The notes under the pieces: generated by a model
Seen by the model: only the letters and a program-made list of their open reading frames with translations
What the model was told of the DNA's origin: nothing
The model's database searches: none
Made by a program: the position numbers and the translations under genes
Assembly: GCA_964349525.1 (NCBI GenBank)
Contig: CAYGGI010000002.1
Location: forward strand, 1-42,222
Origin: an uncultured Candidatus Saccharibacteria bacterium
Lineage (GTDB): Bacteria > Patescibacteriota > Minisyncoccia > Phycocordibacterales > PALSA-1337
Length of the DNA: 42,222 nucleotides
Reading direction: 5' to 3'
Shown here: positions 34,258 to 36,662 of the stretch, one piece after another
Layout of the letters: every line of letters begins with the position of its first letter
Position numbering within the stretch: position 1 is the first letter of the stretch

Positions 34258-35646
34258 TTAGTACGATTCTCTGAATCCTACATAGAATGGAGTGCTTCGA
34301 CATACGCAGGTGTTTGTTGCTCGATCGACAATAAAGCATTCCATCCAGTGTACTCCTGTATAGAGACTCCTCTCCCACTGTTCTTTACCACCCTTAAATA
34401 TCTCACCCCTCAAACCAAATTCTCTTTCCGCATGTTCGCCCGTATTTACTACTTGCCAGTACACCTCGTGTGGCTTGTCATAAGAAGTAATTGCTCTATA
34501 TTTGAGCCAGTGGTATTTGGGTATTTCAGTTTTTGTTGCGAAGGATCCCAAATGTCTTCGATTCATCACTGGCGTTTCACCATGACCCCAATGTAGATCC
34601 GCTTCAATCCTGACAGATGATAATGAGTTACCAGAAAGGATATTAGCATCTCCCAATTCTTGTCTGTGGCTAAAATCAGCCAACTGTAAACCGTTGATTG
34701 AAACTGCAAGCGATCGTTCTTCAGTTGAGGTGTCCACTACATCTCCATCAGACAATTGAAAGCTGTCACCGAATGCATCTTGCCAAAGTTTCAAACTCTC
34801 GTCGACATCATTAGTGTCGTAGGCTTCATCAATTTTAATTCGTAGATCATGAACTTTCTCCTGCGTTTCTGTGAAGTTGTCTTGGTCCCAATGCCGTGCA
34901 AAGCTCTCCGTTGGAAGAACTGGATTTTTTACATCGAATGGACCGCTGTGGGATTGGAGGTAATCATCATACTGACCAAAGAGAATCTTAAAGGTCGTGG
35001 GTAGATCTGAGTAGTGTGTTCGATTTCCAGAGTTCATCACGATACTACCTAAAATTGTGGTGAGCATAATTGACTTTATTGGCATAGCTTCTTTGTCACG
35101 GAGATATTTTGTGAGTCGCGTAACTTTTATAAGAAAGTCGTTCCCACTCAATCTATTAGCTTTTTCGAACCATTGTGCATAGCCGTCGCCGTCGGTAGGC
35201 TCGAAGTTATCAGTTTGTCGATTCATGATTACGTTTCCGACGGTGGTTTGAATGGAAGGAATAATATCGATGTGAAAGTCGTCGGCATAGTCGAGAGTAA
35301 CGCAACGATTCTTGCCGCGGCGGTCTACAATGTCAGTATATCTATCTGTATTTTTAAATTCATTATGTAGGGCATCGAGATACTGTTTTGCTGTCCAGCC
35401 AGAAAATTCATTAAGTTCAAGAAGAACATCAACATCGAAATTCCCGTCTCCCTGAGAGGGTTTAATAATGGTCTTTTGTCGGTATGATCCTTGCGGAACA
35501 ATTTTGATAAAATGATCCTTGAATACAGGGTTATTTTTTATAAAAGTCTCCACGGTGGCTATCCCATCCTTGATCCTCTCGATTCTTGTGGGGTTGAGGT
35601 TTACTTCATTTTCAATAAATTTATCGAACGAATTTATGTATTTCAT
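34258..35646 (-). CDS. SMODS / CD-NTase-type nucleotidyltransferase with an approximately 170-aa C-terminal extension (AGS-C-like sensor domain suspected)
   Basis: Pol-beta NTase triad: QGSY..(15 aa)..DVDVLL and later DFHIDIIP. The C-terminal domain is Trp-rich (HWGHGE, YHWLKYR, VYWQVVNTGEHAE, HWMECF). Confidence 0.8.
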   Translation of the reverse strand: MKYINSFDKFIENEVNLNPTRIERIKDGIATVETFIKNNPVFKDHFIKIVPQGSYRQKTIIKPSQGDGNFDVDVLLELNEFSGWTAKQYLDALHNEFKNTDRYTDIVDRRGKNRCVTLDYADDFHIDIIPSIQTTVGNVIMNRQTDNFEPTDGDGYAQWFEKANRLSGNDFLIKVTRLTKYLRDKEAMPIKSIMLTTILGSIVMNSGNRTHYSDLPTTFKILFGQYDDYLQSHSGPFDVKNPVLPTESFARHWDQDNFTETQEKVHDLRIKIDEAYDTNDVDESLKLWQDAFGDSFQLSDGDVVDTSTEERSLAVSINGLQLADFSHRQELGDANILSGNSLSSVRIEADLHWGHGETPVMNRRHLGSFATKTEIPKYHWLKYRAITSYDKPHEVYWQVVNTGEHAEREFGLRGEIFKGGKEQWERSLYTGVHWMECFIVDRATNTCVCRSTPFYVGFRESY

Positions 35647-35654
35647 ATTTGTTG

Positions 35655-36587
35655 TTATTTATGAATTGGCTCAAATTGAGTAACTTTTTCCTGAAAGAAG
35701 AAGCCAATGATTGGTAGGGCTTTTCTTGCCTCCGAATCCCCCAAGCCTTTTAGATTGCTAATCTCAGTAGTGGTATCCAAAGAAAACTTTCCATTTGCAA
35801 CCGAAGGACTAATCCTGTGGATGTTAGTATGACCAGCTAGTAATTGCGCTGTCCCCAATGATGCTGATGATTGAGCGGTCATGAATACTTTCACTGCTTT
35901 ACATGCCCAGTACGCTTTACCCATAGGCACTGATCGGGCGATACCGATATCCAAGGGTTCAGTGGTGCATCCAAGACTCAACACCTTTATGTCATCCTTT
36001 GCCCACTCCAAAACTCCGATTCCTTCGACTACTGCCATACCCATAGGGTTATTCGCCCAAACACCCCCATCAATTAAAGGTACACCCGCCGTAGAGTGAT
36101 ATGTTGGGAAATAAGAAGGGGCAGCACTTGTAGCCATTGCGATGTCAACAGCTTTTTCCTTAAAATCTCTTCTAAATCTATCGTGGTGGGAAGTTTTGTA
36201 GACATGTACTTCACCAGTCTCTAGATTCACACTTGGTATAACCAGACGATTTTTGCTCTCACCAAGCTTGCGTTCACTGAATTTATCAACTAGTGCTGAC
36301 CGCAGAGCACCATTGTCGTATTTTGCAAAACCTATACTTCTCAGTATCTTCATAAACCCGTTCCCTCCGAAGACAGTAGGCCCCAACTCCTCATAAAATT
36401 GGAGCATTTGTTTTGCCGAATACCCCATGCCGATACCGAGCGCTATAATTCCGCCCGTTGAAGTGCCAACTATGAGATCAAAATATTCGGATATGTTTTT
36501 TCCTGTAGTCTCCTCAATTGAGGCTAGGAAAGAAGCCGGAAATACACCCTTTATACCACCACCATCGATAGAGAGAATTTTTTTCAT
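35655..36587 (-). CDS. capV: patatin-like phospholipase (CapV-like CBASS effector)
   Basis: Oxyanion hole DGGGIKG, nucleophile GTSTGG, catalytic DGGVWANNP. I prefer the ATG at 36587 (MKKILSIDGGG) to the GTG at 36644. Confidence 0.85.
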   Translation of the reverse strand: MKKILSIDGGGIKGVFPASFLASIEETTGKNISEYFDLIVGTSTGGIIALGIGMGYSAKQMLQFYEELGPTVFGGNGFMKILRSIGFAKYDNGALRSALVDKFSERKLGESKNRLVIPSVNLETGEVHVYKTSHHDRFRRDFKEKAVDIAMATSAAPSYFPTYHSTAGVPLIDGGVWANNPMGMAVVEGIGVLEWAKDDIKVLSLGCTTEPLDIGIARSVPMGKAYWACKAVKVFMTAQSSASLGTAQLLAGHTNIHRISPSVANGKFSLDTTTEISNLKGLGDSEARKALPIIGFFFQEKVTQFEPIHK

Positions 36588-36662
36588 TTGTTTTCCCAAC
36601 TGATATTTATAAATGAGAACCGTTGGCGTTCCAAATAATGTCACTAGAAATTATTTAGCGCA

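Follow-up and report, generated by a model that had tools for sequence, protein, structure and literature searches.

A minimal type I CBASS operon with a CapV-type patatin and an AGS-C-fused CD-NTase, and its candidate LexA control, in a Paceibacteria chromosome

Does a bacterium of the candidate phyla radiation (CPR) carry an intact CBASS (an antiphage signalling system based on cyclic oligonucleotides) of the smallest kind and, if so, what might control its expression? The question is raised by a two-gene locus in a 42,222-nucleotide (nt) stretch of contig CAYGGI010000002.1, which we call the window; all coordinates are those of this whole stretch, and L-numbers denote related contigs and loci that were compared with it. 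An initial annotation had read the locus as a minimal, effector-first type I CBASS composed of a CapV-type patatin and a SMODS nucleotidyltransferase. Family profiles from four independent libraries, with matches far past the level of chance, the CBASS_lipase equivalog, predicted folds and catalytic residues all bear out this core reading. We consider it very probable that a Paceibacteria chromosome here carries a functional anti-phage operon, a type I CBASS, in which a CapV-type patatin is paired with a cGAS/DncV-like nucleotidyltransferase (CD-NTase) fused to an AGS-C domain, with LexA control as a candidate part of the same picture. The operon is laid out as follows:

35655 to 36587, minus strand: capV-like patatin phospholipase effector, 310 amino acids (aa) from the ATG; the mechanical open reading frame (ORF) reaches a GTG at 36644
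35647 to 35654, minus strand: intercistronic spacer of 8 nt from the patatin stop to the NTase ATG, read directly from the sequence
34258 to 35646, minus strand: predicted CD-NTase (cdn), 462 aa in two domains (Pfam, PADLOC, AlphaFold2, Foldseek)
34747 to 35646, minus strand: predicted nucleotidyltransferase core, residues 1-300, with catalytic G53-S54, D71, D73 and D127
34261 to 34710, minus strand: predicted AGS-C immunoglobulin (Ig)-like beta-sandwich, residues 313-462 (Pfam AGS_C, domain-only AlphaFold2 model, Foldseek)

The identity of the NTase rests on several lines of evidence. The protein matches the Pfam families SMODS (8.1e-29, residues 1-164) and DncV-like NTFase (1.6e-09), and the PADLOC cyclase profile PDLC00793 covers residues 1-456 with profile positions 1-459 of 462 (4.9e-133). 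Its motifs read Q52-G53-S54, D71-V-D73 and H-I-D127-I; G53, S54, D71, D73 and D127 are invariant in 65 homologs and align with SmCdnG (PDB 8hsb), so that the GS..DxD..D triad which had been described as intact in this 462-aa enzyme is indeed so. An AlphaFold2 model built on the alignment of the 65 homologs (mean pLDDT, the predicted local distance difference test score, 93.1) comprises an NTase core, a disordered linker (residues 305-312) and a beta-rich C-terminal domain. Compared with the PDB by Foldseek, this model retrieved CdnC, CdnD, CdnG, CdnB, DncV and CdnE with E values of 7e-17 to 6e-10, and all 50 matches listed are CD-NTases. On the strength of the model, the protein is a CD-NTase with a cGAS/DncV-like fold. 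It does fall below the NCBIfam CBASS-cyclase equivalog cutoffs (62.6 versus 200), which counts against our reading of the locus and marks the NTase as a divergent member.

Within the CD-NTases its clade is less sharply defined. Clades were compared by PDB sequence matches only, among which there are no clade F or H structures; Serratia marcescens CdnG, solved as a CdnG-E2 complex, is the best match to the NTase core (7.6e-12) and BdCdnG follows at 5.5e-4. SmCdnG lacks an AGS-C domain, has an E2 partner and is about 21% identical to the window NTase. A clade assignment from these matches alone was dropped as insufficient. Relatives of the window NTase occur with and without AGS-C, and those without it are followed by E2 or E1-E2 genes, a mixed pattern that fits the one reported for clades F and G. 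The protein is at most 55% identical to any protein with a named source.

The effector gene encodes a patatin (Pfam Patatin, 7.4e-27) that matches the PADLOC profile for CBASS phospholipase effectors (PDLC00758, 5.4e-101) and passes the NCBIfam equivalog NF041079, 'CBASS cGAMP-activated phospholipase' (CBASS_lipase), with 255 bits against a cutoff of 200. In the PDB, its sequence comes closest to CBASS patatins, CapV among them (8zr9, 9e-30; 9kh7, 1e-33). Alignment to the solved CBASS patatins places the oxyanion motif GGGIKG at residues 9-14, the nucleophile S43 within G41-T-S43-T-G45 and the catalytic aspartate in D173-G-G; all three motifs attributed to this enzyme at the outset are therefore there. 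The patatin ORF runs from 35655 to 36644 on the minus strand if the GTG is taken as its start, and independent gene calls in four sibling metagenome contigs (L001-L003 among them) choose the ATG at 36587, from which the N-terminus reads MKKILSIDGGG. Because the sibling gene calls begin there, the last 57 nt of the span 34258-36644, which had been proposed as the extent of the module, are probably a 5' leader: the ORFs of that span are real, and the start at 36644 gives way to the likelier ATG.

The two genes stand in effector-first order and are separated by precisely the 8-nt gap first reported. No Shine-Dalgarno sequence is recognisable in this spacer, and the close spacing suggests that the genes are probably co-transcribed and translationally coupled. 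The patatin is an adjacent, co-oriented effector of a recognised Cap class, and the patatin-then-NTase pair is kept in at least 30 related loci across phyla. On either side the operon is bordered by a phage Rep gene and by lexA, and neither Pfam nor PADLOC profiles detected Cap2 (E1/E2), Cap3 (JAB), HORMA or TRIP13 in or beside it. The sole JAB-like protein of the window is a RadC (PF04002, 1.6e-28; the PADLOC JAB profile reaches merely 2e-4 over 49 residues), which is encoded 4.8 kb from the operon on the opposite strand, past a type III restriction-modification system. Since no ancillary CBASS gene lies in or beside the operon, it is by gene content a type I CBASS, as the initial annotation had it. 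The CBASS sequence is 100% identical in four assemblies, which come from four samples.

The C-terminal part of the NTase had been suspected to be an AGS-C domain, and both profile and fold agree. Pfam AGS_C (PF18134) matches residues 370-454 at 1.5e-19 (70.7 bits against a curated cutoff of 26.7), and an AlphaFold2 model of the C-terminal 150 residues alone reaches a pLDDT of 96.1 and a predicted template modelling (TM) score of 0.89. In a Foldseek comparison, the third-ranked match of this model is PDB 9ard, the 'Pycsar EcPycC cyclase immunoglobulin-like AGS-C domain' (E 2.6e-3, TM 0.49/0.55 over 142 columns); this is a moderate match, and its neighbours in rank are nanobody, PKD and FN3 folds. 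The EcPycC domain belongs to the same Pfam family and is likewise an Ig-like beta-sandwich, but it is fused to a pyrimidine cyclase and is 12% identical to the window domain. Taken with the profile match, the model supports the view that residues ~313-462, about 150 aa, are a true Ig-like domain of the AGS-C family, and no unrelated domain without CBASS association was matched. The extra domain announced at about 170 aa thus exists and is smaller, at about 150 aa after the linker. All four peptides quoted from it are present (residues 352, 378, 395 and 433), while the label 'Trp-rich' fits in part, as there are five tryptophans in 150 aa and only W397 is invariant. Invariant in the 65-homolog alignment are W397, N401, A406, R413, G414, G431 and H433, a compact residue set that could steer mutational work on the domain.

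This architecture is a known one. CD-NTase-AGS-C fusions are encoded by ~40% of CBASS operons of type I, are near-universal in clades B and H and occur in branches of F and G; the AGS-C domain was described as Ig-like, of unknown function and correlated with the range of phages that is restricted (Richmond-Buccola et al., bioRxiv 10.1101/2023.05.21.541620), and later papers have treated it merely as an annotated 'sensor' domain. The operons characterized in that study are, like the one in the window, two-gene operons with a C-terminal Ig-like domain of ~18 kDa and no Cap2, Cap3 or HORMA; those that were tested came from Gammaproteobacteria and mostly carried other effectors, whereas the window operon is from CPR and carries a patatin. 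The capV-dncV operon of Vibrio cholerae shares the effector-first order and the patatin motifs GGxKG, GxSxG and DGG, but DncV, a clade A enzyme, is without AGS-C and is a distant match to the window NTase (Foldseek E ~1e-11, ranks 34 and below). The V. cholerae operon includes cap2 and cap3 as well, which makes it type II.

The host of the operon can be read from the left 28 kb of the window, which is chromosomal and encodes DnaB, two aminoacyl-tRNA synthetases, FtsW, MurG, alanine racemase and a Mur ligase. Many metagenomic proteins match DnaB at 85-93% identity; those with a name belong to Candidatus Paceibacterota (~89%) or the 'Patescibacteria group'. On these matches the host is a Paceibacteria (CPR) bacterium, and the early guess of a reduced-genome host was sound. 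The accompanying view that such a host would be unusual for CBASS did not hold up: the closest relatives of the NTase are themselves from CPR (Moranbacteria, Parcubacteria and Patescibacteria), and a 2025 aquifer survey found the density of defence systems to be higher in CPR than in other phyla and highest in Paceibacteria (PMC12259885). In a scan of one genome per species, the NTase lineage was present in Saccharibacteria, Moranbacteria, Wolfebacteria, Gracilibacteria and Paceibacterota and, outside CPR, in Acidobacteriota, Cyanobacteria, Gammaproteobacteria and Actinomycetes. The CD-NTase lineage is common in CPR, and the host context is not exceptional.

If the operon works like the characterised systems to which it is homologous, phage infection would switch on the CD-NTase, with the AGS-C Ig-like domain likely serving as the sensor or specificity module. 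The activated enzyme would then produce a cyclic di- or oligonucleotide that binds and activates the co-encoded CapV-type patatin phospholipase, and the active patatin would degrade membrane lipids and so abort the infection. Expression could be gated as well: the operon was inserted in the divergent slot beside a LexA-family repressor gene, and repression by LexA would be lifted upon DNA damage, in the manner of CapH/CapP, CapW and CapK/CapS. We infer, rather than observe, which nucleotide is made, what triggers activation, that the infection is aborted and that LexA is in control; the identities of the genes and of the host, the intact catalytic residues, the folds of the domains, the layout of the operon, the conserved regulatory region and the recurrent link with LexA-like genes are observed.

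The proposed control involves two further features:

36588 to 36769, no strand assigned: divergent regulatory region of 182 nt, common to the CBASS operon and lexA (motifs, promoter scan, alignment)
36770 to 37426, plus strand: LexA-family repressor of 218 aa, encoded divergently from the CBASS operon and a candidate regulator of it (TIGR00498, Pfam)

The LexA protein scores 139.4 bits against the TIGR00498 lexA equivalog cutoff of 110.95, contains the Pfam domains LexA_DNA_bind (3e-12) and Peptidase_S24 (2.8e-20), and has kept the Ser/Lys dyad in G127-N-S-M (127-130) and T164-V-K-R (164-167). Its homologs number in the hundreds across Paceibacteria, with identities of 56-72%; in the closest (70-72%), lexA heads a phage-like element with a methyltransferase, small and large terminase and a serine recombinase. 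One 13.9-kb contig (L081) holds two inverted copies of such a LexA-headed element (LexA, a 98-aa protein, methyltransferase, small and large terminase), at 4152-4832 and 8001-8681. The whole 182-nt region aligns with the regions upstream of lexA in L079 and L080 at a mean column identity of 73%, right to the divergent start codon, despite the fact that the divergent genes there are unrelated to patatin. L082 (lexA 61% identical) shares with the window a type III Res-Mod pair that comes after lexA and is convergent to it, and the divergent genes of L082 form a DUF2188-DinB operon; DinB is a classic SOS gene. None of the 84 loci with a close lexA ortholog has a CBASS beside it, so that the operon is an insertion into the slot divergent from lexA, and an ancestral lexA-CBASS unit was rejected. 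Because the operon was inserted behind regulatory DNA that serves other genes in relatives, the DinB-containing SOS-type operon among them, LexA may hold down transcription of the window CBASS, which would rise on DNA damage or RecA activation; we give this somewhat less than even confidence.

Several sequence signals lie in the shared region. The best promoter in the scan (score 11/12) is that of lexA, TTGACA-17-TAGAAT at 36719-36747. A GAAC-N7-GTTC palindrome at 36617-36631 stands 30-44 nt upstream of the patatin ATG, ACTGTATTTACAGT lies at 36700-36713, and TTAC[A/T]G repeats are also present. A longer palindrome (36737-36775) with 18-nt arms GAATGAGGTTA/TAACCTCATTT extends over the lexA -10 element, leader and start codon. 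Its counterparts are AGAATGAAGGA/TCCTTCATTCT in L079 and ATATACTTAGT/ACTAAGTATAT in L080, where the arm sequence differs and the palindromy is kept, which suggests a conserved leader hairpin or an operator covering the ribosome-binding site. Among the broader Paceibacteria, 72 more distant lexA orthologs share ATCCACA-N5-TGTGTAT repeats upstream. In most lexA orthologs of this broader clade (L083-L162, 130 nt upstream) the element reads TTATCCACA-N5-TGTGTAT-N2-TGTGTAT, with half-sites similar to the CTGTAT SOS half-site of E. coli and with a consensus DnaA box as its first 9 nt. We regard this element as a candidate CPR LexA box.

Support for a regulatory role also comes from other CBASS loci. 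A LexA-like gene lies directly upstream of the operon in 13 of the 61 genome loci with a related NTase and nowhere else in their 16-kb flanks. It is co-directional with the operon in 12 of the 13, nine of these having gaps of -1 to +16 nt, and the effectors are patatins or HNH-SAVED proteins (Cap5-type). At least three lineages are represented among the CBASS-linked LexA-like proteins, each as far removed from the others as from E. coli LexA. In addition, in the closest relative of the window CBASS (L005; NTase 81% and patatin 84% identical) a helix-turn-helix (HTH) protein and an M78 peptidase are paired in the divergent position that lexA has in the window, the layout described for CapH/CapP. 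The reading of a 297-aa gene of L005, which has no precomputed Pfam entry, as a swapped effector was withdrawn, as tblastn and Pfam identify it as a patatin 84% identical to that of the window. Some of these loci show further peculiarities. In L008 (1589-3166) the CBASS-adjacent LexA-like protein is fused, in a 525-aa ORF, to a C5 cytosine methyltransferase-like region, and in L020 (4924-5544) an S24 domain fused to an unrelated N-terminal fragment lies directly upstream of the patatin and looks like an insertion scar. Two CPR loci (L011, 9349-10491; L021, 9330-10421) have a 363-380-aa gene without a family match after the AGS-C NTase, with small gaps or overlaps, which may be an additional operon member.

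The operon-adjacent regulators of immune operons described as of 2026 are CapW/BrxR, CapH with CapP, and CapK with CapS. In each case the repressor lies beside the immune operon, often divergent from it, with a shared promoter region and a response to DNA damage, and the window has a repressor in a like position. CapH is inactivated through proteolysis as part of a pair, an HTH protein and a PF06114 M78 Zn-metallopeptidase encoded upstream on the opposite strand; no M78 peptidase occurs in the window, and the neighbour here is instead a single LexA/S24 protein. These described systems use a peptidase that binds single-stranded DNA, a WYL domain or a kinase, whereas the window LexA would depend on RecA filaments, as activation of LexA generally does. 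Our literature search found no paper that links LexA/S24 genes to CBASS operons. Self-cleaving LexA-family S24 repressors could thus represent a further, undescribed class of operon-adjacent, DNA-damage-responsive CBASS regulators, recruited repeatedly from at least three lineages to the head of CBASS operons, type I and type II alike, that encode a CD-NTase of this lineage in CPR bacteria and their phage-like elements, with the window CBASS dropped precisely into a conserved SOS-type slot. We put this forward tentatively, as a possibility well short of a probable one.

A number of observations weigh against control by LexA. The canonical Ala-Gly or Cys-Gly self-cleavage site was not found in the window LexA, whose aligned residues 90-93 are V-G-C-D; G-C-D takes the place of the scissile-bond A-G of canonical LexA and C-G of UmuD, and it is also present in the CBASS-linked LexA of L021, L033 and L044, the other CBASS-linked LexA-like proteins having C-G or A-G. 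No sigma-70-like promoter on the CBASS strand of the intergenic region passed the scan, and a hand-picked candidate, TTGGAA-17-TATAAA, fails its criteria. As general LexA operators, the GAAC-N7-GTTC palindrome and the TTACAG repeats were rejected: they are missing upstream of the 72 more distant lexA orthologs, and for that reason the candidate operator motifs of the window are subclade-specific. The adjacency of CBASS and lexA in the window amounts to a single insertion among the close lexA loci and could be incidental. Moreover, many of the LexA-linked CBASS loci share a phage-like backbone with a ParB-like methyltransferase and terminase and so are not independent of one another; because of this shared backbone, what the LexA-like gene encodes may be a repressor that serves the mobile element itself and not a regulator of CBASS.

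On its other side the operon borders a prophage, and the initial annotation was right to place it next to a filamentous one: Zot and Rep profiles and the gene order of three related inoviruses in IMG/VR all point that way. Between 28797 and 34239, and on the plus strand throughout, the prophage encodes an ssb-like protein of 91 aa, a 61-aa coat-like protein, proteins of 535, 86 and 74 aa, a Zot-like ATPase and a rolling-circle Rep; PHROGs gave matches for Zot and Rep alone and none for the small and structural phage proteins. The three IMG/VR contigs (6.7-9.3 kb) have the same order of 61-aa coat-like, large 535-aa-type, 86-aa, Zot and Rep genes, with Zot 71-75% and Rep 60-62% identical to the window proteins, and since Rep is part of this shared order it belongs to the phage. 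Inoviruses in CPR hosts have been reported earlier (PMC6813254). Directly after Rep, two of the contigs (L076 and L078) encode a tyrosine recombinase, a position taken in the window by CBASS, and a homology search found no homolog of this recombinase in the window. The gene to the left of the prophage (78 aa, 28373-28609) shares 42% identity with the one on the left flank in L078, and this likeness suggests that the two phages share an insertion locus. Four sibling assemblies, from other runs or samples, are 100% identical to the window and all break off at 28755-28916 and at 33360-33450, in the phage just upstream of Rep, and not around the CBASS, which points to structural polymorphism in the population, or to a change of coverage, across the structural module of the phage.

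Near one of these breaks, at 33419-33450 and 6 nt upstream of the Rep ATG, lies an element of about 30 nt, TTGGACTTGACT[A/C]TACACACACTTAATAC, with a promoter-like TTGACT-18-AATAAT. It is kept upstream of Rep in the three related inoviruses and recurs inverted at 16731-16767, in the host FtsW-MurG intergenic region. In L069, a contig from the same sample with the element at 1297-1333, the phage sequence departs from that of the window exactly at the element, into unrelated DNA. It might act as a promoter, as an att site or as an origin. At the other end of the phage, the convergent Rep and NTase stops (34239 and 34258) are separated by 18 nt, exactly as first noted. A 26-nt inverted repeat with 81% complementarity flanks this junction (34204-34229 in the Rep 3' end, 34381-34406 in the NTase 3' end); there is no intrinsic terminator between the two genes, and read-through would give antisense transcripts. 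Rfam and tRNA scans of the whole window returned no match.

Could the CBASS then be cargo of the inovirus-like prophage, serving the phage, for example by excluding competitors from a chronically infected host? The short distance between the two stops and the occupation of the post-Rep position, where related inoviruses have their recombinase, would suit such a role, as would the frequent embedding of related CBASS loci in phage-like elements; IMG/VR moreover contains one contig, and one only, with a relative of the window NTase, in a patatin-NTase pair at 35% identity. Yet the three related inovirus contigs contain no CBASS or LexA homolog, and the regulatory DNA 5' of the CBASS has its homologs in lexA-linked regions of chromosomes or mobile elements and not in phage sequence. 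The operon is convergent to the phage genes, the sibling assemblies have their breaks within the phage, upstream of Rep, and neither between Rep and CBASS nor past lexA, and the att-like direct repeats looked for around the prophage, with or without the CBASS, came to no more than A/T-rich 9-mers. We therefore judge cargo status unlikely. The CBASS abuts an inovirus that is probably degraded, having no integrase, yet it is not demonstrably phage cargo.

Two other explanations concern the operon itself. It might be an inactive relic with intact-looking ORFs that are no longer expressed or phage-responsive, a view with which the lack of a detected CBASS-strand promoter and the degraded look of the integrase-less prophage would agree, as would the reductive pressure under which CPR genomes stand. 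Against this, both ORFs are full length and have kept every catalytic residue and the invariant AGS-C residues, the sequence is unchanged across four assemblies, and a dead operon of 2.3 kb would be expected to decay in a streamlined genome, so that we consider a relic very improbable. It could also be argued that the NTase is a nucleotidyltransferase that does not signal, being either a housekeeping enzyme or an antitoxin-type MNT/KNTase protein, and that the patatin is an unrelated lipase. Nothing beyond the generic Pol-beta NTase fold speaks for this. The structural matches listed group the enzyme with CD-NTases and not with MNT or KNTase proteins, the PADLOC cyclase model matches it end to end, the patatin exceeds the CBASS_lipase cutoff and the pairing of the two genes is kept across phyla. 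The PADLOC, Foldseek and NCBIfam results refute the non-signalling reading, to which we attach next to no probability, and the preferred reading remains that of a functional type I CBASS operon.

Beyond lexA follow a type III restriction-modification pair (Res 37453-39837 and Mod 39782-41509, overlapping by 56 nt) and the RadC-like JAB gene (41451-42035), and together with the CBASS and the prophage these genes make up a 13-kb defence and mobile-element island. When the ORFs upstream of lexA were simply catalogued for 65 loci, the list proved too noisy for interpretation.

Finally, what does the locus add? Its architecture, both protein families and the AGS-C fusion are already catalogued; as a CBASS operon it is ordinary and intact, adds little and would be called automatically by defence-finding tools. 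Its value is that of a clean, minimal CBASS from a CPR bacterium, CPR being to our knowledge a group without experimentally studied abortive-infection systems. The only unusual feature is the position behind a lexA control region, and the only lead of wider interest is the recurrent linkage of LexA-family genes to this CBASS lineage. If that linkage is functional, abortive-infection immunity of a CPR bacterium would be wired to RecA/LexA signalling and, once confirmed, the emerging rule that CBASS expression is gated by DNA damage would extend to the classical SOS repressor family.

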